Shown: piece after piece, positions 26,293 through 63,735 of the stretch
Layout of the letters: each line of letters opens with the position of its first letter
How positions within the stretch are numbered: position 1 is the first letter of the stretch
From: Ignavibacteriales bacterium
GTDB lineage: Bacteria; Bacteroidota; Ignavibacteria; Ignavibacteriales; DAOSCP01
Direction: 5' to 3'
Length of the DNA stretch: 64,000 nucleotides
Assembly (NCBI GenBank): GCA_035379625.1
Contig: DAOSVM010000001.1
Span: 159,600-223,599, forward strand
The notes under the pieces: model-generated
What the model saw: only the letters and a program-made list of their open reading frames with translations
The model's database searches: none
Told to the model about the DNA's origin: nothing
Made by a program: the position numbers and the translations under genes

Positions 26293-26313
26293 TATTTATG
26301 GAATTAGAATATT

Positions 26314-26348
26314 AAAGCAGGCGAGCGTAAGCGAGCTTGCTTTTTTTT
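26314..26348 (+). terminator. Rho-independent terminator of the TPR gene (sequence duplicated, inverted, at 38304-38338)
   Basis: Imperfect GC hairpin AAAGCAGGCGAGC-GTAA-GCGAGCTTGC followed by T8. It lies 22 nt after the stop. Confidence 0.7.
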
Positions 26349-26369
26349 ATTTTAAAAAATACTTTTCAT

Positions 26370-26970
26370 TAGCTCAGACGGTGTAAGCTTAAAGCCCGTG
26401 CACCGAGCGGCGCACGGGCGGGCTTACGCCCAAAATATATTTCACTAATTAAACCATATCTTACATAATATCAACGACATACAACATTTATGCATATACC
26501 AAAATAACTATTGACTGAAAATTTTCCAAAGTAATAGCAAACTTAAAGTATTAAAATATTTTCGTAATTACGATATAATTGTATTTTTCGATATATTGAC
26601 TTTTCTAAAAATATATTTGTATTTACAATATAATTGTATATACGATATATCAATAATCTTTAATAATATATTTGTAAAGACAATATAATTGATTTTACGA
26701 TATAATAGAAAATGCAATTATATTATAAAAAAAATCGCATCAAATATAAAAATTTGAAAGACTAGATATTAGTTTTGTCAAGAGAAATATTTATTGTGAA
26801 ACACACCATCAGACCTGCGTTCAGACGCTGCATCTAGGAAGTTGTGGAATTATGAAACCGTAAGCTACACTTTGTAAGGTGATAAAGAAAAGATTTTTAG
26901 CGGGCCTTCGGCCCGCTGCCCCTTGCGGCTTTCCACAAGCAGCAAGGGGCTAAGCTTATACCGTCTGAGC
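26370..26970 (+). repeat. Full copy 1 of a non-coding MITE-like structured repeat (module A on the left, module B on the right)
   Basis: Left terminus is TAGCTCAGACGGTGTAAGC (26370-26388). Right terminus is GCTTATACCGTCTGAGC (26954-26970), its reverse complement with 1 mismatch. Module A hairpin is at 26394-26419 plus GGGCG-N6-CGCCC. Module B hairpins are GCCCCTTGC/GCAAGGGGC (26918-26950) and AGCGGGCC-TTCG-GGCCCGCT (26899-26917). The core aligns with copies 2 and 3 in reverse complement. No ORF of 60 aa or more. Confidence 0.85.
26556..26727 (+). repeat. Phased iteron array inside copy 1 (3 x 55-bp units plus one offset palindrome)
   Basis: ATAT(A/T)TTTGT/CGT unit starts at 26556, 26611 and 26666. 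Palindromes are TACGATATAATTGTA (26569), TACAATATAATTGTA (26624) and GACAATATAATTGAT (26679), exactly 55 bp apart. A fourth motif with a flipped centre, TGCAATTATATTATA, sits at 26713 (+34). A CGATATA box lies about 20 bp after each palindrome. Confidence 0.85.
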
Positions 26971-27011
26971 CCAGAGATAGAATATTTTTTTTTTTAATAG
27001 AGACTTTATTT

Positions 27012-28113: not shown

Positions 28114-28662
28114 TTAAGCTTCCACTTTTTCGACTAATTCCATACCTTTTTTGATAGCTTCTTCATTCAGAGGAATGAGATGATGGTATCTTTCAGGTAA
28201 AACTTTTTTTAAACCTTTTAGTACATTATCAATATTAAGAATTGGTTTTAATTTAATAAAAGCTCCGAGAACGATCATATTAAGGATTTTAGTATTTTTC
28301 ATTTCAGCAGCAGTTTGAGATGCTTCTATTCCGATAATTTTTATGTCGGTTCTTTTAGGAGGATGCACAATATTAGTAGAATCATATAATAAAAGTCCGC
28401 CGGTTTTTACAGCGCTTTCGAATTTATCTAAGCTAGGTTGATTGAGAGCGATAACGGTATCGAATTTGGAAAAAATAGGAGAACTTACGGGTTCATCACT
28501 AAGGATAACAATGCAATTAGCAGTACCACCACGCATTTCAGGCCCATAAGATGGCATCCAACTAACTTCCTTATTTTCTTCAACACCAGAATAGCAAAGT
28601 ATTTGACCAAGTGATAAAACACCTTGTCCACCAAAACCAGCAATAATAATTTCTTCAGTCAT
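28114..28662 (-). CDS. 2-oxoacid:ferredoxin oxidoreductase, gamma subunit
   Basis: 182 aa. 'IIIAGFGGQGVLSLGQIL' and 'GPEMRGG' are typical of the POR/KOR/VOR gamma subunit. Last gene of a 4-gene operon. Confidence 0.85.
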   Translation of the reverse strand: MTEEIIIAGFGGQGVLSLGQILCYSGVEENKEVSWMPSYGPEMRGGTANCIVILSDEPVSSPIFSKFDTVIALNQPSLDKFESAVKTGGLLLYDSTNIVHPPKRTDIKIIGIEASQTAAEMKNTKILNMIVLGAFIKLKPILNIDNVLKGLKKVLPERYHHLIPLNEEAIKKGMELVEKVEA

Positions 28663-29495
28663 TATTTAGCCTCCTCTTTTTTAGGAACTTTAATATCGCC
28701 TAATTGGTAAAATTTCAACATGTTGTCCTGTAACCACATATTAGATTCAGTAGGTGTCATTTTCCAATTAGAAGGGCAATTTGAAACGATTTCAACAAGG
28801 CAAGTTCCTTTATTAAGTTTTTGATATTCAAAGGCATTTCTAATAGCTTTTTTAGCTTTTCGAACGTGATTAGGGGAAAAAACAGCTTGTCTAGTGACAT
28901 AATAGGTTCCTGGGAGCTGTGCAACGAGTTCAGAGATTTTTAGGGGATATCCGACAAAATTTACATCACGTCCTTCAGGGGAAGTAGTTGATTTCATTCC
29001 TGGTAAAGTTGTCGGTGCCATTTGCCCGCCAGTCATACCATAAATACCGTTGTTTATGAAAATAATAGTAATATTTTCACCACGGTTACAGGTGTGAATA
29101 GTTTCACCAGTACCAATAGCAGCAAGATCTCCATCACCTTGATAGGAAAAAACAAATTTATCGGGAAAAACTCTTTTAATTCCGGTGGCAACAGCGGAAG
29201 CACGTCCATGGGCAGCTTCGCTCCAATCAATATCAAGGTAGTTATAAGCAAAAACTGCACAACCAACAGGGGCAACACCAATTGTTTGCTCTTGAATGCC
29301 CATTTCTTCTATTACTTCAGCAATTAATTTGTGAACAGTACTATGGCCACATCCTGGGCAATAGTGAAATGGATTATCGAGTAGTACGCTTGGTTTTTGG
29401 TATACAATGTTTTCTCTTACGCAAATATCATCTTCATGATGGAGATGATCATCTGTATATAATTCCTCTTGTAGGTATAATCTTTCGTTACCCAT
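28662..29495 (-). CDS. 2-oxoacid:ferredoxin oxidoreductase, beta (TPP-binding) subunit
   Basis: 277 aa. 'CPGCGH' and 'GDGD..AIG..E..H..R.N.....I..NN..YGMTGGQ' form the TPP-binding motif. Confidence 0.9.
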   Translation of the reverse strand: MGNERLYLQEELYTDDHLHHEDDICVRENIVYQKPSVLLDNPFHYCPGCGHSTVHKLIAEVIEEMGIQEQTIGVAPVGCAVFAYNYLDIDWSEAAHGRASAVATGIKRVFPDKFVFSYQGDGDLAAIGTGETIHTCNRGENITIIFINNGIYGMTGGQMAPTTLPGMKSTTSPEGRDVNFVGYPLKISELVAQLPGTYYVTRQAVFSPNHVRKAKKAIRNAFEYQKLNKGTCLVEIVSNCPSNWKMTPTESNMWLQDNMLKFYQLGDIKVPKKEEAK

Positions 29496-29497
29496 AA

Positions 29498-30562
29498 TTA
29501 TTTCCTTATAATTTTTTCTTCAAATTTTTCAACAATTTCTTCGGGAGTAGGAATCATTCCACCTGTTCTTCCATGGAATTCAACCGGTACAAGTCCATTG
29601 ACTGCTAATTTCACGTCTTCAAGCATTTGACCAACATTCATTTCAATATCTAAAATACCTTTGATTTTTTTAGCATAATTATTTATTTGCTCATATGGGA
29701 AAGGGAAAAGAGTAATTGGTCTAAAGACACCAACCTTGTAGCCCTTATTTCTTGCAATTTCAGCTGCTTTTTTAGCAATTCTAGCAACAAGGCCAAAGCC
29801 AGTGAAGATATATTCAGCATCATCACACATATATGTTTCGTATCTAACTTCTTCTTTTTCTATTTGTCTATACTTATTTTGCAGATGGATGTTAGTTTTT
29901 TCCATATCTTCAGGATGCATATGAAGAGAGGTTATAATATTTCTTTCGCGGTTTTTAGGTTTTCCAGTAGTTGCCCAAGGTTCATATTCAGTAATTCTTT
30001 CTTGCTGTGGGAAAAGTTCTACTTTTTCCATCATCTGACCTATAGCACCATCTAATAATAACATAACTGGATTACGCCATTTGAAAGCTAATTCAAAAGC
30101 AAGTTTTACAAAATCGACAGCTTCTTGAATGGTAGAAGGTGCAAGCGTAATTAGTTTATAATCTCCGTGTCCACCACCTTTAACAGTTTGGAAATAATCA
30201 CCTTGGGATGGCTGAATTGTACCTAACCCTGGACCACCACGCATAACATTAACTAGAAGACAAGGTAATTCAGCGCAAGCAATATAAGAAATACCTTCTT
30301 GCATTAAGCTAATACCAGGAGAAGAAGAAGAAGTCATAACTCGTTTTCCGCATCCGGCAGCACCATAAACCATATTAATAGAAGCTATTTCACTTTCTGC
30401 CTGAAGAACAACCATTCCCGTTCTTTTGTTTGCATAAGTTGCTAGATATTCAAGAATTTCAGATTGGGGAGTAATTGGATAGCCGAAATAGGCATCACAT
30501 CCAGAGCGAATTGCTGCTTCAGCAATTGCTTCGTTACCTTTCATTAATTTTAGTTCTTTCAT
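29498..30562 (-). CDS. 2-oxoacid:ferredoxin oxidoreductase, alpha subunit
   Basis: 354 aa. 'GNEAIAEAAIRSGCDAYFGYPITPQSEI' and 'SSSPGISLMQEG' are typical of KorA/VorB/PorA. Substrate specificity cannot be read from the sequence. Confidence 0.9.
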   Translation of the reverse strand: MKELKLMKGNEAIAEAAIRSGCDAYFGYPITPQSEILEYLATYANKRTGMVVLQAESEIASINMVYGAAGCGKRVMTSSSSPGISLMQEGISYIACAELPCLLVNVMRGGPGLGTIQPSQGDYFQTVKGGGHGDYKLITLAPSTIQEAVDFVKLAFELAFKWRNPVMLLLDGAIGQMMEKVELFPQQERITEYEPWATTGKPKNRERNIITSLHMHPEDMEKTNIHLQNKYRQIEKEEVRYETYMCDDAEYIFTGFGLVARIAKKAAEIARNKGYKVGVFRPITLFPFPYEQINNYAKKIKGILDIEMNVGQMLEDVKLAVNGLVPVEFHGRTGGMIPTPEEIVEKFEEKIIRK

Positions 30563-30849
30563 TCTTTCACCATAATATTTATATCTTTAGTTACATTAGT
30601 TATTGTTGCAATATGTTCTTTATTACCATCTACTGTTTTACGATAAACTGTTATTATGCCTTCAGGGCAAACCAAAGCACAATTTGTACATCCAGTACAC
30701 TTATCATTTACTCTAACAATATAAAGATAACCTTTAGAGTTAACTTTTTTAGATAACTCTAAAGTATCTTGTGGACATGCACTGGCGCATAACTTGCAAC
30801 CTTTACATTTTTCGATATCAATAATGATATCTCCTTTGACCTTTGCCAT
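30559..30849 (-). CDS. 2-oxoacid:ferredoxin oxidoreductase, delta subunit (2x[4Fe-4S] ferredoxin)
   Basis: 96 aa with two CxxCxxCxxxCP motifs ('CKGCKLCASACP' and 'CTGCTNCALVCP'). Confidence 0.85.
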   Translation of the reverse strand: MAKVKGDIIIDIEKCKGCKLCASACPQDTLELSKKVNSKGYLYIVRVNDKCTGCTNCALVCPEGIITVYRKTVDGNKEHIATITNVTKDINIMVKE

Positions 30850-33802: not shown

Positions 33803-33877
33803 TTTAATAAAAATGTGGATAACTTTTATATAACACCTACATCACATTGATACACAGTATGTTATAGTTATCCACAT
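33803..33877 (-). terminator. Long-stem intrinsic terminator of the MFS permease gene
   Basis: Perfect 12-bp arms ATGTGGATAACT (33813-33824) and AGTTATCCACAT (33866-33877), plus an inner ATAACA/TGTTAT pairing. The minus-strand read is followed by TTTTTATT. It lies 17 nt past the stop at 33894. Confidence 0.65.
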
Positions 33878-36251: not shown

Positions 36252-37709
36252 ATGAATATACTTTTACTTGATGACGATAAAGGTTCAAGAGAAGCATTAG
36301 ATAGATTTCTTAATAAAATTGGTTACAAAATTGTAACTGCTTCAACACCTTTTGATGCAATTGAAATATTAAGTCAAAATACCTTTGATATAATTATATC
36401 AGATGTAAAGATGCCACAAATGAGCGGTTTAGAATTTTTGGAAACAATAAAGCAAAAAAATATAAAGGGCCAAGCTGAAGTAATACTTATTACTGGATTC
36501 GCAACAATCAAAGAAGCTGTTAAAGCATTAAAATTAGGCGCATATGATTATATTTCCAAACCAATAGATATTGATGAATTATTAAACGCAATCGAAAAAA
36601 TTGCTAATGTAAAAAAATTGCAAACTGAATTAAATACAATTAAACATGACTTCCAAATAGAATTAGAAAAAACAAAAGAAACTTTTCTTACTCAAATAAC
36701 AGACTTAAAGAAAAAATTACTCGAACAGAGTGGTATCGGGCATTTAACAATTTTTTCTGAAACGATGAAATCTGTTTATACAATGGCCGAAGTAATTGGA
36801 CAAGACCCTACCGTACCAATTCTCCTTGAAGGTGAAACTGGTACCGGAAAGGAAATGTTAGCTCGTTATATTCACTTAGTAAACGAAGATGTTAATTCTC
36901 CATTTATTGCTATAAACTGCCCTGCAATAAACCCTAACTTATTTGAAAGCGAACTCTTTGGTTATGAAAGTGGTGCTTTTACAGGAGCTTTAGCAAAAGG
37001 GCAAAAAGGGAAATTTGAACTTGCTGCCGGCGGTACAATATTACTCGATGAAATTTCCGAAATACCTAATGAAATACAGGCTAAATTACTTAGAGTTATT
37101 CAAGAAAGAAAATATTTCAAAGTCGGTGGTATAAAAGAATACGATTTAAAAGCCCGAATAATTTGTACAACAAATAGAGATATTAAAAAATTAGTACAAG
37201 AAGGTAAATTTAGAGAAGATTTATATTATAGACTTACAACTGGTCACATTATTATTCCTCCATTACGAGAAAGAAAAAATGAAATTATTCCACTTGCTCT
37301 TTCGTTTTTAAAAGAATTCTCAGAAAAAAGAAATAAAAAATTTTCTTCCATCTCTAACGAAGCTCAAATAATATTACTCAATCACCCTTGGGAAGGGAAT
37401 ATCCGAGAATTAAGAAATATTTTGGAAAAAATAGTTGTATTATTTAATGATCATACATTAAAACCAACACATTTACAATTACTCCCAGGATTTAGAAAAC
37501 AAAATACTAAACCAAATGCTATAGACTTACCTATTAGTGAATATCTTGCCTCAGGAAGCAATATTGATTTAGAAAATTACATCTTGGATATTGTTAAATT
37601 TGCTTTAGAATTAAACAAAAACAATAAAGTTAAAACCGCACAGCAATTAGGAATATCAAGAGATAAGCTCTACACATATATAAAGCATTTAAAATTAGAA
37701 AATATATAA
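36252..37709 (+). CDS. Sigma-54-dependent response regulator (NtrC family: REC-AAA+-HTH)
   Basis: 485 aa. REC ('ILLLDDD...SDVKMPQMSG'), Walker A 'GETGTGKE', sigma54-contact 'GAFTGA', Walker B 'LLDEI' and a C-terminal Fis-type HTH. Confidence 0.9.
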   Translation: MNILLLDDDKGSREALDRFLNKIGYKIVTASTPFDAIEILSQNTFDIIISDVKMPQMSGLEFLETIKQKNIKGQAEVILITGFATIKEAVKALKLGAYDYISKPIDIDELLNAIEKIANVKKLQTELNTIKHDFQIELEKTKETFLTQITDLKKKLLEQSGIGHLTIFSETMKSVYTMAEVIGQDPTVPILLEGETGTGKEMLARYIHLVNEDVNSPFIAINCPAINPNLFESELFGYESGAFTGALAKGQKGKFELAAGGTILLDEISEIPNEIQAKLLRVIQERKYFKVGGIKEYDLKARIICTTNRDIKKLVQEGKFREDLYYRLTTGHIIIPPLRERKNEIIPLALSFLKEFSEKRNKKFSSISNEAQIILLNHPWEGNIRELRNILEKIVVLFNDHTLKPTHLQLLPGFRKQNTKPNAIDLPISEYLASGSNIDLENYILDIVKFALELNKNNKVKTAQQLGISRDKLYTYIKHLKLENI

Positions 37710-37730
37710 AAAAAAGTTTTTCATATTACT

Positions 37731-38282
37731 TAGCTCAGACGGTGTAGGCATAGCCCACGTGCGGCGTTGCCGCACGTGGGCAGCGGGCCGGAACGGCCCG
37801 CTAAACTCTTCTCTTCAACACCTTACATACAGTGATGTTTTTGGGCCTAAATATTCAAATCTTTATCAATACGTACCAGTTTACAATTGGTACAATTTTT
37901 TTTATAATAAAATTGTATTTACATTTATATCGTAAAATCAATTATATTGTATTTACAAATAAATTATTAAAAATTACTGATATATCTTATATACAATTAT
38001 ATTGCAAGAACAAATATGTTATTAGAAAAGTGAATATATCGAAAAATACAATTATATCGTATACGCTAATTTTAGCAATATCTATATTATTTATTCACTT
38101 TTTTTACTTAATCTAATCTATATTAAAAAAATATATAAACAACATTTAGTTATTTAGTTAAATGTAAAAATATAAAATATATAGGTAAAAATTTATTAGA
38201 ATGTATTGGGGGAAAAATTTAGGCGTCAGCCCGCCCGTGCGCCGTACGGCGCACGGGCTTTATGCTTACACCGTCTGAGCTA
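37731..38282 (-). repeat. Full copy 2 of the MITE-like structured repeat (inverted relative to copy 1)
   Basis: TAGCTCAGACGGTGTAGGC (37731-37749) and GCTTACACCGTCTGAGCTA (38264-38282). Module B is on the left: extra hairpin CCCACGTGCGGC/GCCGCACGTGGG (37754-37780) plus AGCGGGCCG-GAA-CGGCCCGCT (37782-37802). Module A is on the right: GCCCGTGCGCC-GTAC-GGCGCACGGGC (38233-38258). The ORFs at 37832-38116 and 38219-38470 are not conserved in other copies. Confidence 0.85.
37903..38061 (-). repeat. Phased iteron array inside copy 2
   Basis: Palindromes ATCAATTATATTGTA (37937), TACAATTATATTGCA (37992) and TACAATTATATCGTA (38047) are exactly 55 bp apart. The offset motif TATAATAAAATTGTA is at 37903 (34 bp before the first). 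A degenerate in-phase site is at 37882. Confidence 0.8.
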
Positions 38283-38303
38283 ATGAAGAGTATTTTTTTA
38301 AAA

Positions 38304-38338
38304 TAAAAAAAGCAAGCTCGCTTACGCTCGCCTGCTTT
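38304..38338 (-). terminator. Rho-independent terminator of the barrel gene (inverted duplicate of 26314-26348)
   Basis: The reverse complement reads AAAGCAGGCGAGCGTAAGCGAGCTTGC followed by T7, near-identical to the terminator at 26314. It lies 20 nt past the stop at 38358. Confidence 0.7.
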
Positions 38339-38357
38339 AAATATTACAACATTATGA

Positions 38358-39737
38358 TTAAAATTTCCATCTATTACCAACTGCAAAGTTGAATTTCCTA
38401 GAACTATTTGGAGCAAACAGAGTGTATAAATCAAGTGTAGCGATATCAAGTTCCCAAACGCCAGTATCAAAACCTAAACCAAAAGCCCAATTAAAACCGT
38501 ATTTACCACCTGCAGAAAATCCTGTTCTAATATATGGTGACCATTTTGACGGAATATACCAGTCAAAACCTAATGAAAATCTTGGAATTGTGGAATTTCC
38601 CAATTCATCATTAAAACCTTGATTATAATTAAATTCTGCTAATAACCTACCGGGGATTTCCGGAATAAATTTTTGCAATTCCGTTGCAATACCTAACCTT
38701 AATGCGGTAGGTAAAGAAGTTGTAAATGCTCCAGTATATTTGCCTTTATATTTTAATGTATCTCCTAAATTCTCTGTTTGATTTTTATCAGTAAATGATG
38801 TTATAACTTTTGTACGATTAGCTTGATAAATAACAACGTTTTCCTTCCATTTAATACTTCCAATATCTGTTATTGCAAAACCAAAAAGGAAGAGATCATC
38901 TTGGCTTTTAGCTGAAAAACCTATATCGAAACCTAATCCTGTACCTGCAGGTTTTGAAAAAGGCGAAATTTTACTATCACCGTTACTACTTGTTGAATCA
39001 AAATCATATTTAATTTTAATATCTGGTGAAGTAGAGATTAATAACGAAGAATTATTTATAATTGTTGTTGTAACAATATTATTTTCATTTTTTGTAATTA
39101 CTGATAAATTAGTACTTTTTGTTTGAGAATATGCAAGGCCATTAACAAATTTCAATGAAATACCAGCAGAAATATTTTTAAGGTAATCAATTTTAATTTC
39201 AGGAATTAATCTTGAATAAGAAATATTATAATCTACAAAATATCCAGCTTTTGTATTCAAATTTTTCATAGAATAGACTTTTTGTGCATTTTCTTCATCG
39301 CCTAAAGTGAAATTATCTATTAGTAAATTGAATAAATCTGCCGGCAATGTTAAATCTGAAACTAAACGGTGATTTATTGCAAATCCAAAACTACCTATAT
39401 CTTTAGAGGGATTTATAGTAAAAGCTAAAGGGGTAAAATTTAAACCAAATTCCATTTTGGCATTATCCTTAAAGATATCCTTAAACTTTTGTTTATCACT
39501 TGCGGTAAGTGTTCTTCCTACTAGATTACCATTTCCATCATAAACACCACCAAAAAAATATTTTAATTCTTCAATTGATAAAAAGTTTCTATATAATGAA
39601 AAATTTATTGCAGGTATTATAGGAATATATAAATCTAAAGAAAAATTATTTTTTAATACAGAATCTTGAGACAAATTTGCTGGATTTTTCCCTAAGGCAT
39701 AAATACCACGAGATGAAGCTACATAAGTATTAGCCAT
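38358..39737 (-). CDS. Outer-membrane beta-barrel protein (PorV/PorQ/FadL-like); 5' end apparently frameshifted
   Basis: 459 aa as called. N-terminal 'YGMANTYVASSRGIYALGKNPANL' resembles the PorV/PorQ-family signature. Beta-strand-rich, ending 'AVGNRWKF' (terminal aromatic). The frame stays open upstream to 39806, and a signal-peptide mini-ORF lies out of frame at 39799-39840. Confidence 0.55.
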   Translation of the reverse strand: MANTYVASSRGIYALGKNPANLSQDSVLKNNFSLDLYIPIIPAINFSLYRNFLSIEELKYFFGGVYDGNGNLVGRTLTASDKQKFKDIFKDNAKMEFGLNFTPLAFTINPSKDIGSFGFAINHRLVSDLTLPADLFNLLIDNFTLGDEENAQKVYSMKNLNTKAGYFVDYNISYSRLIPEIKIDYLKNISAGISLKFVNGLAYSQTKSTNLSVITKNENNIVTTTIINNSSLLISTSPDIKIKYDFDSTSSNGDSKISPFSKPAGTGLGFDIGFSAKSQDDLFLFGFAITDIGSIKWKENVVIYQANRTKVITSFTDKNQTENLGDTLKYKGKYTGAFTTSLPTALRLGIATELQKFIPEIPGRLLAEFNYNQGFNDELGNSTIPRFSLGFDWYIPSKWSPYIRTGFSAGGKYGFNWAFGLGFDTGVWELDIATLDLYTLFAPNSSRKFNFAVGNRWKF

Positions 39738-45458: not shown

Positions 45459-48400
45459 ATGAAAAGAAAAATATTATTTTTCTTTGTAGTATTATTAACA
45501 ATTGTTTTTGGACAGCAAAAGCCACCTATCTATATAGCTTTTCATTGGCATATGCATCAACCAATTTATTGGCCTTACGAAACAGTTTGGCAAACACAGC
45601 AACGAGGCGCTTATAGTTATAGCGTTGTAGATATTTTTAATCAAAGAATCGGACCTTATACTAATTGGCCTAAAGATGCTATCTACAAAGGAATAAACAA
45701 CAATTTAGAGCATTTAGGTGCACAAGTAAGTTTAAGTGGTTCATTAATAGAAAATTTGAATAATTTAGAAAGTGGTGGAAATGGAAATTTTAACGGTTGG
45801 AAAAATCATTGGAAAGATATAGCCACCAAGAAAACATCAAAGAATAATCCGAGAATTGATTTAGTTGCTTTTGGTTATCATCACCCATTGATGGGATTAA
45901 TTGATTATGAAGATATAAGAAAACAAATTCAACAACATAGAGAAGCTATAACAACTAATTTTGGAATAAGTTATTCAAAAGGAATATTTCCACCAGAAAA
46001 TGCTTTCACGCCAAGAATGATTCCTGCATTAGTTGCAGAAGGTTTACAATGGGTAATGGTAGATAATGTTCATTTTGATAGAGCAACTGAGGGCTATCCA
46101 TTTAATACAGGTGGAAATTTGTATGAACCAAATAAAGCTGATATTCAAAATCCTAATCCAAATGATTGGGTACAACTAAATGGATTATGGGCTCCGACAA
46201 AAGTTTCAGCAGGCTGGGGTCACAAACCACATTACATAAAATATGTCGATCCCAATACTGGGCAAGAATATAAAATGATAGCTGTACCAACAAGTAGATA
46301 TTTAGGGAATGAAGATGGCAGAGGTGGTTTTGGCGCATTAAACTATGAACAAGTAATGAGTCAATTAGAGTTTGCAAATAATGATCCAGCTCATCCTATT
46401 CTTGTTGTTTTACATCACGATGGCGATAATTATGGCGGTGGAAGTTCAGGCTATTATGGCAGTAATTTCGATAATTTTGTAAATTGGCTAAAAGCTAACC
46501 CTTCTAGATTTGTTTGTACAACTATTCAAGATTATTTGGATATGTTCCCACCAGATCCAAACGATGTTATTTGGGTTGAGGATGGTAGCTGGTCAGGTGC
46601 TGATAATGGCGATCCAGAATTCTTAAAATGGAATGGCGATCCAGGTAGTGACGGCTACAGTCCCGATAGAAATAGCTGGGGAATTGTAACGGCGGCAAAA
46701 AATTATGTCTTTACTGCTGATAAGATTAATCCTAATGATAATAATACAAAATTAGCATGGAAATACTTAACTGTTTCACAAACAAGCTGTTATTGGTATT
46801 GGGATGGCTCTGAAAACGGAGTATGGGATTCTCACCCTGCGAGAGCTTGTAATGAAGCTGTAAAGTATGCTAAAATGGTGACTGATGGCGGAAATGATAT
46901 TGTTGGGCCTACAATTTATATCCCACAACGAGAACCTTATAATCCAGGTTCTACCGAGTGGAATATTTCGAAACCTTCAGATTTTACCGTTTGGACTTAC
47001 GTTTATGATTTAAGTGGATTGAATTCAGTAAAATTGAAATATAGAGTAAACAATGATAACAATTATAAGTTAACTAATGATAATTTTACTTATTCTGGTG
47101 GCTCTACTGTTGGCGCTTGGCAAGAAGTTACAATGAATTCCAAAACAATACAATCAAAAACAAATCCACTTCCATCTTACAAAGCCGATGAATTTAGTGC
47201 GATAATTTCAGGAATAAAAAATAAATTAGTTGATTATTACGTTGAGGCTGTAGATTCTAAAGGAAATGTAACTAAAAGTCCAATTAAGCATGTTTGGGTT
47301 GGTGATGGTTCAGGTACAACAGGCGGCGGGACAACATCTTCGGTAATTTGGACTCCAACTAATCCAACAAAAAATGATGAAATTGAAATTAAAGTTATTT
47401 CGTCTAAAAGTGCTAAATTACATTGGGGAGTAAATTCCGTTAATAAAAATTGGACTACCCCAAATCAACTTTACTGGCCTTCAAACACAACATTATTTAA
47501 TAATATTGGACCTGCTGTTGAAAGCCCTTTTACTAAAGTTGGTGATACTTTAAAAATAAAATTAGGACCTTTCAACAATCCTGCACAAGTTGTTAATTCT
47601 TTAAATTTCGTTATTCATTTTGATGATAATACTTGGGATAACAATAACAATAACGATTATAATATTCCAATAAGCGGAAATAATAGCGGTGATACTACAA
47701 AACCTACTATTACATTCAATATGGACGGCAACCTTGATGAAAATACTAATATAGCTGCTCAAAATTCTGATGATAAATTACATTATATTTATTCCAACGG
47801 ATTACTCTATCTAGCTACAAAATCAGCTCAATCAAAAGGTAATGATGCTTTCATCTTTGTGTCAAAAACAAATCCTACTGCATTAGTTAATGCTCCTTGG
47901 GCAAAAACTGGAAAAGTTGGTACATATGATATATTTTTAGGAAATGAAAGTACAAACAATTGGTCTGGCTGGTTCGATAAAAACGGAAATTTATTAAACT
48001 CAATCAAACAAAAATCTGGACAATATTTAGAAGCTGTTATAGATTTGAAAAATGATTTAGGAATTACTAATCCAGAAAAAATTTATGTAGCAGTTGGTTA
48101 TTATAATACTAACGATAATGGAAAATTAGTTTTACAAATTCCACAGGGCAACTCAAATGATGATATTGATATAAACGAATTAGCAGAAATTTCATTGCAA
48201 ACTGTAACCAGTAATGAAAACACCATAAAGTTAAAAGATTATTTATTATTATCAAATTACCCTAATCCTTTCAATCCATCAACTTTAATAACTTATTATT
48301 TACCAACTGCTGGCAATGTAAAATTAGATATTTATAATTGTTTAGGCGAAAAAATCGAAAGTTTGGTAAATACATATCAATATCCTGGCAATTATACTGT

Positions 48401-48497
48401 AAAATATGATGCTAAAAATTTAGTTTCTGGTATTTACTACGTAGTTTTAAACTTAGATAATAAGATAAAAACGCATAAAATTATGCTAATGAAATAA
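45459..48497 (+). CDS. Secreted glycoside hydrolase family 57-like enzyme with C-terminal accessory domains and T9SS CTD
   Basis: 1012 aa with a signal peptide. 'FHWHMHQPIYWPYE' (GH57 region I 'HQP') and 'AFGYHHPLMGLI' (GH57 region II-like). A Gly/Thr linker 'GDGSGTTGGGTTSS' follows. C-terminal 'LSNYPNPFNPSTLITYYLP...GIYYVVL' is a T9SS CTD. Confidence 0.7.
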   Translation: MKRKILFFFVVLLTIVFGQQKPPIYIAFHWHMHQPIYWPYETVWQTQQRGAYSYSVVDIFNQRIGPYTNWPKDAIYKGINNNLEHLGAQVSLSGSLIENLNNLESGGNGNFNGWKNHWKDIATKKTSKNNPRIDLVAFGYHHPLMGLIDYEDIRKQIQQHREAITTNFGISYSKGIFPPENAFTPRMIPALVAEGLQWVMVDNVHFDRATEGYPFNTGGNLYEPNKADIQNPNPNDWVQLNGLWAPTKVSAGWGHKPHYIKYVDPNTGQEYKMIAVPTSRYLGNEDGRGGFGALNYEQVMSQLEFANNDPAHPILVVLHHDGDNYGGGSSGYYGSNFDNFVNWLKANPSRFVCTTIQDYLDMFPPDPNDVIWVEDGSWSGADNGDPEFLKWNGDPGSDGYSPDRNSWGIVTAAKNYVFTADKINPNDNNTKLAWKYLTVSQTSCYWYWDGSENGVWDSHPARACNEAVKYAKMVTDGGNDIVGPTIYIPQREPYNPGSTEWNISKPSDFTVWTYVYDLSGLNSVKLKYRVNNDNNYKLTNDNFTYSGGSTVGAWQEVTMNSKTIQSKTNPLPSYKADEFSAIISGIKNKLVDYYVEAVDSKGNVTKSPIKHVWVGDGSGTTGGGTTSSVIWTPTNPTKNDEIEIKVISSKSAKLHWGVNSVNKNWTTPNQLYWPSNTTLFNNIGPAVESPFTKVGDTLKIKLGPFNNPAQVVNSLNFVIHFDDNTWDNNNNNDYNIPISGNNSGDTTKPTITFNMDGNLDENTNIAAQNSDDKLHYIYSNGLLYLATKSAQSKGNDAFIFVSKTNPTALVNAPWAKTGKVGTYDIFLGNESTNNWSGWFDKNGNLLNSIKQKSGQYLEAVIDLKNDLGITNPEKIYVAVGYYNTNDNGKLVLQIPQGNSNDDIDINELAEISLQTVTSNENTIKLKDYLLLSNYPNPFNPSTLITYYLPTAGNVKLDIYNCLGEKIESLVNTYQYPGNYTVKYDAKNLVSGIYYVVLNLDNKIKTHKIMLMK

Positions 48498-48515: not shown

Positions 48516-48549
48516 AAGGCAAGGAAGCAATGCAACCTTGCCTTTTTTT
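48516..48549 (+). terminator. Rho-independent terminator of the GH57-like gene
   Basis: AAGGCAAGG (48516-48524) pairs with CCTTGCCTT (48536-48544), followed by a T-run to 48549. It starts 19 nt after the stop. Confidence 0.8.
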
Positions 48550-48568
48550 ATTTTAAAACAATTCTCAT

Positions 48569-49138
48569 TAGCTCGGACAGTATAAGCATAGCAGCGGGCC
48601 GGAACGGCCCGCTAAAAATCTTTTCATCATCACCTTACCAAGTGTAGCTCAACGGTTTCATAATTCCACATCTCCCAAAATTCAGTGCAGATTGTGTGTT
48701 TGACTGAAAAATTTTTTTTTGTCAAAGCTAAAAATTAGCCTTAAAATTTTATGTTTATTGCGGATTTCTATATAATATAATTGTATTTACAATAATATCA
48801 TACAACCAATTATATTGTATATACAAAAATATTTTTTAAAATTGTAACTATATCGTGTATGCAATTATATTGTAAATACGAATATATTTTTAAAAATTGC
48901 GAATATATCGTAATTTTTAATATATAGGAATAACGATATTACGTATACACTTTTTTTTACATAATTTAATCAATCTTAAAAAAAATTTTAAACAATATTT
49001 AGTTATTTAGCTAAATGTAAAAATATATAAAATATTGATAAAAAATCTAATGTAAGATAGTAGATGGAAAATTTTTGGGCGTTAGCCCGCCCGTGCGCCG
49101 CAAGGCGCACGGGCTTTATGCTTACACCGTCTGAGCTA
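48569..49138 (-). repeat. Full copy 3 of the MITE-like structured repeat (same orientation as copy 2)
   Basis: TAGCTCGGACAGTATAAGC (48569-48587) and GCTTACACCGTCTGAGCTA (49120-49138). Module B is AGCGGGCCGGAACGGCCCGCT (about 48592-48612), with no extra hairpin. The conserved block 'GGTTTCATAATTCCAC' equals the reverse complement of copy 1's 'GTGGAATTATGAAACC'. Module A is GCCCGTGCGCC-GCAA-GGCGCACGGGC (49089-49114). No ORF of 60 aa or more. Confidence 0.85.
48771..48874 (-). repeat. Phased iteron array inside copy 3
   Basis: The offset motif TATAATATAATTGTA is at 48771. Palindromes ACCAATTATATTGTA (48805) and TGCAATTATATTGTA (48860) are 55 bp apart. The next in-phase site (48915) is degenerate. 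Confidence 0.75.
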
Positions 49139-49266
49139 AATATGTTAATATTTTTTAATTTTTAAAATAATTTTTCAAGATTTTTATAATTCTTTTATTT
49201 ACAAATAATTGTTTCATATTTTTCATTATTTAATTATATTTGTATTTTGAACTATTAGGATATTAA

Positions 49267-53679: not shown

Positions 53680-53850
53680 TTTTAATTGACATTTAAAAAT
53701 ATTTTTACTATATTTGACTAAGAAGTTTACTATATCGCTGTTTTTTTGAAGAAATTAACAAAATAATTGAACCTTTTGATATATTTTTGTTGTTTAGTTT
53801 ATAGTTTATTATTGTTATTAAAAGTTTGAAAAAAGTTCTTATAATAAAAT

Positions 53851-53947
53851 GTTCAGTCGGGATTTATGGCGACTTGCACCGACTTTAAACAAATAGCTAA
53901 ATAGCCGAATAAGTTTAAAACCTTCGCTATTTAGCGAAGGTTTTTTT
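53851..53947 (+). promoter_or_regulatory. Candidate SAM-II/SAM-V-class riboswitch with terminator/antiterminator, leader of the metY operon
   Basis: TATAAT at 53840-53845. Stem AGTCGG (53855-60) pairs with CCGACT (53879-84), enclosing 'GAUUUAUGGCGACUUGCA'. The 3' tail is 'AAAUAGCUAAAU' (SAM-II-like GAUUU...UUGCA...AAAGCUAAA features). GCTAAATAGC (53896-53905) is perfectly complementary to GCTATTTAGC (53926-53935), inside the terminator CCTTCGCT-ATTT-AGCGAAGG plus T7 (53921-53947). Confidence 0.45.
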
Positions 53948-54021: not shown

Positions 54022-55308
54022 ATGCCAGAAAATACATTGAAATTCGAAACATTAGCATTGCATGCGGGGCATGATATCGATCCAACATTATCACGTGCTG
54101 TTCCTATTTATAGAACTTCATCTTATGTATTTAAAGATACCGAACACGCAGCTAATCTTTTTGCACTTAAAGAGTTGGGCTATATATATACACGCTTAAT
54201 GAATCCAACACAGGATATTCTTGAGAGAAGAATTGCCGCTCTTGAAGGTGGTGCTGCAGCATTAGCTATTGCATCTGGTACATCTGCAATTTTTTATTCA
54301 ATAATAAATATATTATCTGTTGGAGATGAATTTATTTCAGCTAATAATTTGTATGGTGGAACTTATACTATGTTTAATGATATTCTTCCACAATTCGGTA
54401 TAAAAGCTAAATTTGTTGACGTTAGAGATCCAAGAAATTTTCAAAAAGCAATTACTGAAAAAACTAAAGCAATATATATAGAAACAATTGGCAATCCTGC
54501 ACTTGATGTTGCTGATATAGAGGAAATAGCTAAAATAGCCCATGAGAATGAACTTCCATTAATCGTTGATTCTACTTTTACAACACCATATTTACTTAGG
54601 CCTATTGAATATGGAGCAGATATTGTCGTCCATTCCTTAACTAAATGGATAGGCGGACACGGAACGGGGATTGGAGGAATTATTGTTGATGCTGGAAAGT
54701 TCAATTGGCAAAATCCGAAATTTAAGCTTTATAATGAACCAGATCCTAGTTATCATGGATTAAGATATGCTCATGATTTAGGTGATTTTAATCCAATTGC
54801 ATTTGCAATGAGAGCTCGACTTGTACCTTTAAGAAACTTAGGCGCTTGTATTTCTCCTGATAACGCTTGGCTATTCTTACAAGGTATTGAAACTTTAGCT
54901 TTAAGAATGGAAAGACACTCACAAAATGCATTAAAGATTGCTGAATATTTAACTAATCATCCAAAAGTAAAGTGGGTACGATATCCAGGATTGCCCGATG
55001 ATCCATCTTATCCTTTAGCTAAAAAATACTTAAAAAATGGCTTTGGTGGGATGGTTGTATTTGGAGTTAAAGGCGGTGCCGATGAAGGAAGAAAATTTAT
55101 CGAAAATTTGAAAATTTTCTCACATTTGGCAAATGTTGGAGATGCTAAATCATTAGCTATTCATCCAGCAACAACAACTCATTCACAGCTCAATGAGGAA
55201 CAACAGTTAGCTGGTGGTATTACACCTGAACTTATCAGATTATCTGTTGGAATTGAAAATGTGAATGACTTAATCCAAGATATTGAAAATTCATTACATT
55301 TAATATAG
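54022..55308 (+). CDS. metY: O-acetylhomoserine aminocarboxypropyltransferase (sulfhydrylase)
   Basis: 428 aa. 'FETLALHAG', 'YTRLMNPT' and 'HSLTKWIGGHG' (PLP lysine) are canonical for the MetY/Cys-Met PLP family. Strong SD AAGGAG. Confidence 0.9.
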   Translation: MPENTLKFETLALHAGHDIDPTLSRAVPIYRTSSYVFKDTEHAANLFALKELGYIYTRLMNPTQDILERRIAALEGGAAALAIASGTSAIFYSIINILSVGDEFISANNLYGGTYTMFNDILPQFGIKAKFVDVRDPRNFQKAITEKTKAIYIETIGNPALDVADIEEIAKIAHENELPLIVDSTFTTPYLLRPIEYGADIVVHSLTKWIGGHGTGIGGIIVDAGKFNWQNPKFKLYNEPDPSYHGLRYAHDLGDFNPIAFAMRARLVPLRNLGACISPDNAWLFLQGIETLALRMERHSQNALKIAEYLTNHPKVKWVRYPGLPDDPSYPLAKKYLKNGFGGMVVFGVKGGADEGRKFIENLKIFSHLANVGDAKSLAIHPATTTHSQLNEEQQLAGGITPELIRLSVGIENVNDLIQDIENSLHLI

Positions 55309-60742: not shown

Positions 60743-60804
60743 GGGCGTTAGCCCGCCCGTGCGCCGTACGGCGCACGGACTTTATGCTTATACCGTCTGA
60801 GCTA
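60743..60804 (-). repeat. Truncated copy S1 of the repeat family (module A plus terminus; possible decayed core remnant back to about 60637)
   Basis: GGGCGTTAGCCCGCCCGTGCGCC-GTAC-GGCGCACGGAC TTTATGCTTATACCGTCTGAGCTA. The hairpin is at 60755-60780 and the terminus at 60786-60804. The terminus lies 9 nt from the cyclase stop codon. Upstream 'TTGTAAATAGAATATATAAATTT' and 'TATATTGTA' resemble core iteron sequence. Confidence 0.8.
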
Positions 60805-60813
60805 AATATAGTA

Positions 60814-62637
60814 TTATGATGAGCTATTTTCTGTTTCTAAAAAGAACATTTTAAGCTTACCTTTACCTTTTACAGAAATTTCCCCCCTGTCATCAAAGTT
60901 ATATTTATTTTCTAATATCTTTTTCGTTGCTTCTGAAACATTTATTTTGAAGGGAAGACTTGAGTTTTCTAATCTTGAAGCGACATTAACTGTATCGCCC
61001 CAAATGTCATATGTTAATTGTGTTTTACCAATGATACCTGCAGAAATAACTCCACTATGTAAACCTGAACGTACTTCCCATTTAATTTGGGCTTCTTTGT
61101 TATTTATTTTGAGATATTCGAATATTTCTAATGCTACTTTTACTAATCTTTCTGCGTGGTCATCGCACTCATAAGGAAAACCGGCACCTATCATATAAGA
61201 GTCGCCAATGGCTTTAACTTTCACGCAATTGTGTTTTAAAATAATTTGATCGAAAACTGAATATATTCTTGATAATTCTTCTACTAATGTTTTAGGTGAT
61301 AGTTTAGACGCTATATTTGTAAATCCTACAAAATCAATAAACATAATGCTTACATTTTCATATATTTTTGGTTCTATATATTCTTTTTTTCTTAATTCGT
61401 CAGCAATTACCAATGGGAAAACGCTGTTTAGTAAATTATCTGCTCTTTGTTTTTCTTGATTGATTATTGAATTTTTTCTTTCAATTAATTCATTTTTTTC
61501 TTCTAACTCTTTATTTTTCTTTTGAATTATTTTATTTTTATGCAAAATATAGACTACAACTAAGCCAAAAATTACTAATAATGAAATAAGAAAATATTTT
61601 ATTAACTTTTCTCTTTCACGTTCTAAATTTTCAATTCTTCTTTGTTTTTCTTTTTCAAATTCATCTAAAACGTTAAAAACACCTACTAAGTTAGCTCTTG
61701 CATCGAGTGAATCCATTCCTAAAGTAAATTTTTTGCTATATACTAAAGCGCTATCGTACATTTTATTTTTTTCATATAAATGCATTAATTTCATAGAAAT
61801 ATTGGAAAAATCATCCCAGAAGGCTATTTTATAACTTATATTTAATGCTTTTTTGTAATATATTAAAGCTTTGTTAAAATTATTTAATTCATTAAAATAA
61901 TCACCATAATGCATATAAAATGCAACAGCAAAACCTAAATTTTTTTCTAGATTTCCTGCTGTTTGTTCGGAGAGTTTTAGGTAAACGAAGGCAAAATCAT
62001 ATTTTTTTTCATTAAGATAAATTCTTGCACTATTTAAAAAGGCTTTAGCAATTCCAATACTATCTTTCTCAACTTTTCTAATATTATACATTAAGTTATT
62101 AAAGTATTTAGCTTTATTATAATTAGCCAATTTCAAATGAGTTAATACAAGACTATTATATACATAACTCATACCTTTTTGAAAATTTATTTTTGAAAAT
62201 ATTTTTAGAGCTTCATTTAAATTTTCTAAAGACTTTTGAAATTCATTGATATAATAAAAATTAGCTCCTAAATTATTAAAAGCATATCCTAATTGTATAC
62301 TATCATTAAAATAATCGGCTTTATCTCTTGCCATAACAAAATATTTAGCAGCAATGGAATTTCTGACAAGCCCCATATATACAACGCCAATATAATTATA
62401 TAACTCCGGTAACTCTCTTAATAATTGATATTCTGTAATTAATTCTAAAGCTTTATAACCATATTTAAGGGCAAGTTTTGGATCTTTTGCGCGGTATTCC
62501 CAGGTAAGTTTTTTTAAGATTTTTATAGTGTCGTATTTTTTATCTACTTTTTGTTTTTCGAAACCATTCGCAAAGGTAGAAGAGCATAATAAAATTAGAA
62601 TAATTAAGATTTTGTATATTTTATTTAAATTTAACAT
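60814..62637 (-). CDS. Membrane-anchored TPR-repeat class III adenylate/guanylate cyclase
   Basis: 607 aa. Signal/anchor, TPR-like repeats, a coiled coil, one TM ('LISLLVIFGLVVVYIL'), then the cyclase domain 'VSIMFIDFVGFT...KAIGDSYMIGAG...IWGDTVNVASRLE'. Confidence 0.85.
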   Translation of the reverse strand: MLNLNKIYKILIILILLCSSTFANGFEKQKVDKKYDTIKILKKLTWEYRAKDPKLALKYGYKALELITEYQLLRELPELYNYIGVVYMGLVRNSIAAKYFVMARDKADYFNDSIQLGYAFNNLGANFYYINEFQKSLENLNEALKIFSKINFQKGMSYVYNSLVLTHLKLANYNKAKYFNNLMYNIRKVEKDSIGIAKAFLNSARIYLNEKKYDFAFVYLKLSEQTAGNLEKNLGFAVAFYMHYGDYFNELNNFNKALIYYKKALNISYKIAFWDDFSNISMKLMHLYEKNKMYDSALVYSKKFTLGMDSLDARANLVGVFNVLDEFEKEKQRRIENLEREREKLIKYFLISLLVIFGLVVVYILHKNKIIQKKNKELEEKNELIERKNSIINQEKQRADNLLNSVFPLVIADELRKKEYIEPKIYENVSIMFIDFVGFTNIASKLSPKTLVEELSRIYSVFDQIILKHNCVKVKAIGDSYMIGAGFPYECDDHAERLVKVALEIFEYLKINNKEAQIKWEVRSGLHSGVISAGIIGKTQLTYDIWGDTVNVASRLENSSLPFKINVSEATKKILENKYNFDDRGEISVKGKGKLKMFFLETENSSS

Positions 62638-63640: not shown

Positions 63641-63669
63641 TTGCTTTATAAATAATTATAAAAATATAT

Positions 63670-63735
63670 TAGCTCAGACGGTGTAAGCATAAAGCCCGTG
63701 CGCTGTGCGGCGCACGGGCGGGCTAACGCCCAAAA
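63670..63735 (+). repeat. Truncated copy S2 of the repeat family (terminus plus module A)
   Basis: TAGCTCAGACGGTGTAAGCATAAAGCCCGTGCGC-TGTGCG-GCGCACGGGCGGGCTAACGCCCAAAA, with the hairpin at 63694-63719. A near-iteron, TACAACATAATTGGA, follows at 63756-63770. It sits between the obg stop and the permease start. Confidence 0.8.

Follow-up and report, generated by a model that had tools for sequence, protein, structure and literature searches.

The closest described systems to the repeat reported here are the repetitive extragenic palindromes (REP) and bacterial interspersed mosaic elements (BIME) of enterobacteria and the REPINs of Pseudomonas, systems associated with REP-associated tyrosine transposases (RAYT). 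These are high-copy, extragenic, GC-rich imperfect palindromes of 20-40 nt, conserved in the stem and free in the loop, that lie mostly after gene 3' ends, occur as mosaics of inverted units, produce no target duplication and persist for a long time. We identified a family with these properties in 64,000 nucleotides from an Ignavibacteriales bacterium (GenBank assembly GCA_035379625.1, contig DAOSVM010000001.1, positions 159,600 to 223,599; this whole stretch is referred to below as the window). A first-pass annotation had flagged a GC-rich palindrome of 26 nt at 38233-38258 (H1), together with four further copies, as REP/BIME-like, and this class assignment holds: the palindrome is extragenic, occurs in high copy and keeps its stem constant but not its loop. 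The hairpin forms a subterminal clamp within the end module of a non-coding mosaic repeat that is specific to its lineage.

The family differs from REP and BIME in several respects. The members of a pair are separated by an AT-rich core of 250-900 bp and not by a short linker. The partners lie 264-1038 bp apart and have different stems, and we did not find the single long hairpin into which a BIME or REPIN doublet folds. The most conserved part is not the palindrome but a 20-nt terminus beside it, which is common to unrelated stems. The GT[AG]G tetranucleotide found at the foot of REP palindromes is not a general feature; the sequence 5' of the H1 stem is GGTGTAAGCATAAA, and GTAG occurs in a subset of units only (e.g., 37744-37747, 5-6 nt off the stem). 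No RAYT gene was found near any copy of the repeat.

The Correia elements of Neisseria and other miniature inverted-repeat transposable elements (MITEs) are similar in being non-coding, 100-600 bp long, intergenic and AT-rich in the body, and in having terminal inverted repeats, which here are the inverted 20-nt termini. They may also carry a promoter, a terminator or RNase III sites, and mark points of rearrangement. Unlike these elements, the repeat has GC-rich double hairpins at both ends and no target-site duplication (Correia elements duplicate TA), and no autonomous insertion sequence (IS) with matching ends was found in the contigs fetched for this study. The BOX elements of Streptococcus pneumoniae likewise have two different end modules, a variable number of tandem internal modules, a stable predicted fold and no known transposase. 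However, there is no sequence relation, and BOX modules are 45-59 nt long in an element that folds on itself as a whole, whereas here there is a GC clamp at each end and a core made of chains of 55-bp AT-rich palindromes.

The ends of IS200/IS605 elements and palindrome-associated transposable elements (PATEs) also have subterminal hairpins at a fixed distance from the ends, without target duplication. Their ends are not inverted repeats, however, and they have a fixed 4-5-nt target on one (left) side. In the Ignavibacteriales repeat the ends are reverse-complementary, flank composition is mirror-symmetric, and no Y1 transposase was found. There is also a likeness to intrinsic terminators, which have a GC-rich stem of 9-15 bp and a loop of 3-6 nt. 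The hairpin of the flagged type (module A), followed by TTTATGCTT, passes a consensus terminator scan, and has the U-rich tract (at least 5 U in 8) that is weak or missing in the A' and C-type units of the same family. Unlike typical terminators, it is accompanied by the much better terminators of the flanking genes (T7-9), which lie just outside the repeat.

The repeat is of the REP/BIME/MITE kind, behaving like REP/BIME, Correia and BOX elements, and is not a new kind of system. A full-text literature search returned no description of such repeats in Ignavibacteria, and the family is a previously undescribed one of interspersed mosaic palindromic repeats. It fails the defining tests of the three known mobilization routes (REP/RAYT, DDE-MITE and IS200/IS605).

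Architecture of the repeat

A pattern search for GCCCGTGCGCC-N4-GGCGCACGGGC with up to three mismatches found exactly five matches in the window, at 26394-26419, 38233-38258, 49089-49114, 60755-60780 and 63694-63719 (copies 1 to 5), and none in any of 100 shuffles. The hairpin observation is real and statistically secure. The copies, coordinates and loop sequences first reported were borne out, as was the adjacency to the TPR, DUF5723 (initially "barrel"), cyclase and Obg genes. However, the larger composite repeat of ~550 bp had gone unnoticed. Copies 2 and 3 have an 11-bp stem without mismatch, copy 1 has a single A.C mismatch (+ strand) and copy 4 a single C.A mismatch; the loop of copy 5 is closed by a T.G pair, or alternatively is a 6-nt loop on a 10-bp stem. 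Directly 3' of H1, in unit orientation, every copy has TTTATGCTT (in copy 1, TTTAAGCTT). The + strand carries three of the five units and the - strand the other two. The G+C content of the window is very low (22-35%), and all eight of its strong GC hairpins (defined as perfect stems of 8 bp or more that include 6 or more G-C pairs) come from this family. Eight termini were counted in the window, of which the repeats make up ~3%.

Alignment of the five copies shows that the conserved unit is ~75 nt long, and not limited to the 26-nt hairpin. It consists of a second hairpin (H2), H1, a T-rich spacer and the 20-nt terminus GCTTACACCGTCTGAGCTAA, with the consensus ATTTTGGGCGTyAGCCC, GCCCGTGCGCC-loop-GGCGCACGGGC, TTTAT, GCTTAyACCGTCTGAGCTAA. 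Past ...GAGCTAA each locus has its own unrelated sequence. The distance from the hairpin to the terminus is fixed at 3-5 nt at both ends of the repeat. H2 is a small hairpin, GGGC-N4-GCCC, that abuts H1 without overlap; across the family its loop is GTTA, TTTA, GTAA or GTCA and its GGC/GCC stem is constant. The folding energy of the unit is -32 to -37 kcal/mol (z = -3.4 to -4.5), and that of the flagged unit, taken as 81 nt, is -34.4 kcal/mol (z = -3.4 against shuffles). The first-pass annotation had proposed GGGCG-N6-CGCCC as a fold that excludes H1. This is the weaker of the two pairings and is broken in many members because its fifth base is often T; in the larger copy set, this variable base falls in the loop of the GGGC-N4-GCCC fold. 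Mutually exclusive folds are unnecessary.

Copies 1, 2 and 3 of H1 each form one end of a composite repeat of ~550-600 bp (R1, R2 and R3, respectively). The opposite end is formed by a diverged unit in inverted orientation (A'), which shares the terminus but has different hairpins, H1' and H2'. The flagged copy belongs to R2, which is organized as follows.

37730-38283, + strand: composite R2, consisting of an inverted A' unit, an AT-rich core and an A unit
37730-37802, - strand: A' unit of R2; in + strand order, the reverse complement of the terminus (37730-37749), H1' and H2'
37753-37781: H1' of R2, GCCCACGTGCGGC-GTT-GCCGCACGTGGGC
37782-37802: H2' of R2, AGCGGGCCG-GAA-CGGCCCGCT
37926-38062, no strand: core of R2, 2.5 copies of a 55-bp unit, with no conserved open reading frame (ORF)
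38221-38232, + strand: H2 of the flagged unit, (A)GGC-GTCA-GCC(C), predicted by folding and abutting H1
38233-38258, + strand: H1 of the flagged unit, GCCCGTGCGCC-GTAC-GGCGCACGGGC, a perfect 11-bp stem
38259-38283, + strand: spacer TTTAT and 20-nt terminus GCTTACACCGTCTGAGCTAA, with locus-unique sequence beyond

The A' unit of R2 has a predicted folding energy of -47 to -51 kcal/mol (z = -4.8 to -5.6). H1' begins GCCCACGTGCGGC... in R2 and GCCCCTTGCGGCTT... in R1 and is deleted in R3, and the H2' of A' units is AGCGGGCC-loop-GGCCCGCT. The core consists of 2.5-2.8 tandem copies of the 55-bp unit, with the overlapping palindromes TTGTA-N2-TACAA and TACAAT-N3-ATTGTA, plus CGATATA. The other members of the family in the window are two composites and two solo units.

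26369-26973, - strand: composite R1, inverted relative to R2, with its A' terminus at 26954-26973
26369-26431: A unit of R1, with terminus 26369-26388, H1 26394-26419 and H2 26420-26431
48568-49139, + strand: composite R3, with its A' end at 48568-48613 (H1' deleted, H2' 48593-48613)
49077-49139: A unit of R3, with H2 49077-49088, H1 49089-49114 and terminus 49120-49139
60743-60805, + strand: solo unit c4, with H2 60743-60754, H1 60755-60780 and terminus 60786-60805
63669-63731, - strand: solo unit c5, between obg and a FecCD permease gene, with terminus 63669-63688, H1 63694-63719 and H2 63720-63731

The terminus of c4 is 8 nt from the cyclase stop codon, and no partner terminus was found upstream of this unit. 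The terminus of c5 ends 28 nt ahead of the permease start codon. The termini of c4 and c5 face inward across the cyclase and permease genes, and the two units are 93% complementary over 70 nt. The relative shows no inversion of the segment between them with respect to obg.

The same architecture recurs in the fetched loci (0.76 Mb), in which we counted 161 non-redundant termini at up to three mismatches. These loci contain 60 distinct composites of 264-1038 bp (mode ~530), plus solo units. In unbiased partner searches an inverted partner was present for 51 of 69 units, and the partner termini were on average 2.3 of 20 positions off the consensus. Forty-four composites yield an asymmetric consensus of ~545 bp that runs from the A end through the core to the A' end. 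We found no consensus structure in the core halves beyond the end hairpins, with alignments of mixed subfamilies being poor.

No ORF of 90 or more amino acids lies inside any composite (defined by an outward-facing pair of termini) in the fetched contigs. A small protein or type I toxin-antitoxin system in the core was also considered and rejected: no small ORF is common to more than 9 of 44 composites, and those that are shared simply reflect conservation of the hairpin and terminus, which they cross in different frames.

Selection on the base pairs of the hairpins

The H1 stems of 159 units contain 1726 Watson-Crick pairs, 22 G.U pairs and 16 mismatches. They have 71 different arm sequences, in at least six unrelated stem families that occur with a common terminus. 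Module A cannot itself show covariation because it hardly varies: its 39 full-length stems are 99.4% identical, yet have 16 different loops, and median identity between the cores of these repeats is 76%. Thus, the loop drifts about as fast as the core, unlike the stem.

Compensatory change is seen in the sister families. In 47 A' units, 95.8% of cells are paired, compared to 27-56% when the partner is slid. Both sides have changed in six pairs, versus 2.8 +/- 0.8 in shuffles (none of 500 as high). One pair is A-U in 28 units, G-C in 17 and G.U in one, and a second is U-A in 39 and A-U in four. Selection preserves pairing in both H1 and H2 and leaves the loop, details of the spacer and the core to drift. 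Selection on pairing, a matter that the first-pass annotation had left to covariation analysis, is confirmed by this much larger copy set. Old copies, with ~76% core identity and near-perfect stems, provide a clean natural case of per-locus selection on structure. They bear on the long-running debate about whether REP-like elements are parasites or host tools.

The terminus (e.g., 38264-38283) varies in its own way. Its variants are almost only exchanges of C and T, at positions 3, 6, 9, 13, 17 and 18 of the outward strand, and 83 of 84 transitions are on pyrimidines; we found no pairing partner or other cause. Three candidate pairings were rejected. A third hairpin inside the terminus (GCUUA-N7-UGAGC) is predicted by folding, yet shows no compensatory change. 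A panhandle joining the two termini fits in neither orientation, as G.U-type (54) and A.C-type (29) combinations are both present. Long-range pairing of TGTAAG with the terminus shows no covariation.

Distribution, gene context and rearrangement breakpoints

In contigs representing one genome per species, the terminus pattern GCYTAYACCGTCTGAGCTAA occurs in a single metagenome-assembled genome (MAG), Ignavibacteriales bacterium AMR_MDS_1854, at three sites, and viral contigs gave no matches. It matches 84 metagenome loci, most of them supplied by two JGI samples. The proteins encoded in the window point to uncultured Ignavibacteriales. The family is restricted to a small clade of a few uncultured Ignavibacteriales.

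Only 7 of the 161 termini are inside ORFs. The composites lie between convergent genes in 23 cases, tandem genes in 21 and divergent genes in three, compared to a background of 64, 172 and 74, respectively, in the same contigs (p = 4e-5). Of the gene ends that flank composites, 67 of 94 are 3' ends, at a median distance of 51 nt. At 47 of the 67 3'-facing composite ends, the gene has its own terminator ahead of the repeat, as marked by an intervening T-run that most often ends exactly 5 nt from the terminus. In the window, a canonical terminator intervenes between the TPR gene and its adjoining unit, and similarly for the DUF5723 gene:

38300-38340, - strand: T2-family intrinsic terminator of the DUF5723 gene, GCAGGCGAGC-GTAA-GCGAGCTTGC followed by T7, between the gene and the flagged unit

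This T2 module is part of a 123-nt block that is common to the ends of the TPR and DUF5723 genes and is 92% complementary to 26312-26434; the T2 terminator of the TPR gene (~26312-26350) is immediately outside R1. The shared block, and the presence of a different terminator at the GH57 gene of a related species (see below), hint that the repeat may carry, and not target, at least some of these terminators. The terminator module AAAAAAA-GCAAGCTCGCTTACGCTCGCCTGC-TTT (read inward, a hairpin followed by T7-8) is found at 26312-26350, 38300-38340 and 48530-48560, with 20 further copies in the fetched loci. Two more terminator families (GCTCCCTT... and GGCTGCC...) recur beside termini, usually exactly 5 nt away. 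The 3' ends of three tRNA genes (Thr, Phe and Leu) each have a unit 40-56 nt away (positions 322-455 of locus L026, 2904-3052 of L058 and 7028-7181 of L063, respectively), which extends the placement of the repeat just past the ends of transcription units to tRNA genes. Annotation of terminators, small RNAs and rearrangements in these Ignavibacteriales must reckon with the repeats.

Contigs of the same species (L092-L098) retain c4 and c5. There are no empty sites among the fetched loci, the repeat being present at all shared flanks. In a relative (L088) with 68% amino-acid identity in the permease, there are no termini in 21 kb of syntenic DNA. The obg and permease genes are 138 nt apart in the window, compared to 49 nt in the relative, which lacks the unit. 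In this relative the response-regulator gene and the GH57 gene are convergent, with 43 nt and a single classic bidirectional terminator between them where the window holds R2 and R3, and the cyclase gene converges on the POR operon. In the window, the response-regulator (36252-37709) and GH57 (45459-48497) genes are 10 kb apart, and the cyclase gene (60814-62637) and POR operon (28114-30849) are 32 kb apart. Every junction that is broken compared to the relative carries a repeat (R2, R3, c4 and R1). Because the partner genes are separated in the window and a repeat is found at each broken junction, the repeats mark rearrangement breakpoints, which suggests their involvement in such changes of the genome.

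Two perfect DnaA boxes (TTATCCACA), at 33814-33822 on the - strand and 33868-33876 on the + strand, are inverted relative to each other in the 170-nt gap between a radical-SAM and an MFS gene. This gap may be the replication origin, as it is close to the cumulative GC-skew minimum (~38-40 kb). R1, to the left of the boxes, is inverted relative to R2 and R3 on the right.

Possible functions of the end hairpins

We tentatively favor a reading in which H1, at the end of a mosaic repeat of REP/BIME/MITE-like character, would serve as an RNA stop or insulator that faces outward. Aided by H2, it would fold into a stem-loop in the RNA of the outward strand, which reads away from the body of the repeat. 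There it would stop or process any transcript that exits or traverses the AT-rich, promoter-like core, ahead of its entry into the neighboring gene in antisense. Different stems could serve, because stability alone would matter. The stem would be relaxed where the start of a co-oriented gene sits just outside, and the 20-nt terminus would be recognized in DNA as the boundary of a (once) mobile repeat.

An RNA stop of this kind predicts much of the pattern observed. Wobble pairs favor the outward strand over the other strand (22 versus 9, p = 0.03), and a terminator scan calls H1 with TTTATGCTT as a terminator on the outward strand. Where a co-oriented gene starts less than 60 nt outward, H1 has a median of 7 pairs, versus 11 elsewhere (Mann-Whitney p = 0.0005). 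Pairing is constrained and stem sequence is free. The cores contain promoter-like sites (e.g., TTTACA-17-TATAAT, matching at 11 of 12 positions).

Several observations weigh against this proposal. Promoter-like sites in the cores are no commoner than in shuffles (9 versus 5.7 +/- 2.0), and the wobble bias is based on 31 pairs. The U-tract is adequate in module A only (TTTAT); the stems of the sister A' and C-type units are followed by TTAA, TAA or CAC. Unit c5 lies in outward orientation inside the junction of obg and the permease gene, which is operon-like in the relative, and is kept in several strains; a strong terminator at this place would be polar on the permease. The proposal also leaves the conserved 20-nt terminus, and its near-exclusive C to T and T to C variation, unexplained.

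The main rival reading, possible but somewhat less likely, is that the hairpin folds in single-stranded DNA and is the recognition structure for an as yet unseen trans-acting transposase or recombinase, with the cleavage site in the terminus. Movement would then occur without target duplication, as at REP/RAYT, the ends of IS200/IS605 elements and relaxase nic sites. Consistent with this, we found no excess of direct identity between flanks for k = 2-9 at eight boundary offsets, compared to shuffled pairings, and thus no target-site duplication at any of these lengths or offsets. The fixed 3-5 nt between hairpin and terminus at both ends, the preference of wobble pairs for one strand, a weak correlation of composite orientation with GC skew (26 versus 12, p = 0.03), the lineage-specific nature of the family and its presence at synteny breakpoints also fit. 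However, HUH enzymes read the sequence of the stem, and here at least six unrelated stems occur with one terminus; the ends are inverted with symmetric flanks, unlike those of IS200/IS605. Among 729 ORFs in ~0.9 Mb around the repeats, a motif scan found no HUH motif and paralogue clustering found no multi-copy transposase-like ORF, and these ORFs lend no support to the RAYT or IS200/IS605 link proposed initially. No pair of termini flanks a transposase gene, and the genes between inward-facing pairs of units are housekeeping genes. Moreover, transposition competence alone would be insufficient to maintain intact stems in old copies with a core identity of 76%.

An unlikely extension of the RNA-stop proposal is that the composite is not a decaying transposon but a self-insulated, non-coding functional cassette that donates terminators or insulators to gene ends, with selection at the level of the host acting on each locus. 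It would combine an AT-rich core whose repeats bind proteins or act as promoters, outward RNA stops that depend on structure only, a sequence-specific 20-nt terminus and, often, inward-facing terminators of its own. Such a cassette would spread without target duplication in a very AT-rich genome. The mobilizing mechanism would be new, because the family passes none of the tests for REP/RAYT, DDE-MITE or IS200/IS605 elements.

The suggestion of the first-pass annotation, that the hairpin lies in a 3' untranslated region (UTR) and terminates or stabilizes the mRNA of the adjacent gene, as REP sequences do in E. coli operons, now appears improbable. It is in keeping with the 95 of 146 termini that face a gene 3' end, with the response-regulator (stop at 37709) and cyclase (stop at 60814) genes, which have no other hairpin before the unit, and with c5, which follows obg in a probable operon. 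About one third of units face gene starts, however, and the wobble pairs favor the opposite strand (22 outward versus 9). Furthermore, the intervening T-runs at 47 of 67 composite ends show that most of these genes have a terminator of their own before the repeat, so a stabilizer or terminator role is poorly supported.

We also consider it quite unlikely that the hairpins or cruciforms, terminus and core repeats are bound at the DNA level by host proteins such as gyrase or nucleoid proteins, in the manner of BIME/RIP elements, which would relieve or organize supercoiling between convergent genes. The enrichment of composites between convergent genes (p = 4e-5), the conserved sequence motifs of core and terminus and the per-locus constraint on old copies would agree with such binding. 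But a binding site would neither need compensatory changes in a stem nor tolerate unrelated stems, the strand asymmetry of the wobble pairs points to a single-stranded form, and there is no known binding protein.

Finally, it is hardly plausible that the unit is a small structured RNA gene, possibly derived from a tRNA, on the strand that starts with UUAGCUCAGACGGUGUAAGC (a 5' seed or D-arm-like sequence) followed by two hairpins: the layout does resemble that of trans-acting small RNAs, and the reverse complement of the terminus, TTAGCTCAGACGGTGTAAGC, is similar to the tRNA D arm (positions 8-26; 15-16 of 19 shared with a tRNA-Ile from the same metagenome population, shuffle p ~0.01), but only this D-arm-like stretch is similar, the tRNA-invariant bases G18 and A14 vary among copies, ARAGORN identified no tRNA in the window and a tRNA/tmRNA search of the fetched loci placed tRNA genes outside the units, Rfam has no family match for the units, the wobble pairs favor the other strand, and many of the more than 100 copies are right behind inward-facing terminators, leaving no room for a promoter.

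At permissive E-values, the best Rfam match in 37690-38380 was a generic terminator hairpin (E-value 0.15). At gathering thresholds, the sole Rfam match in the window was a SAM-II (SAM_alpha) riboswitch at 53846-53920 on the + strand (46.9 bits), which is unrelated to the repeat and lies upstream of a Cys/Met-metabolism gene (54022-55308). We also identified three tandem 261-nt (87-amino acid) repeats, 67-88% identical, at 400-1200 within an ORF of 595 amino acids (92-1879, - strand).

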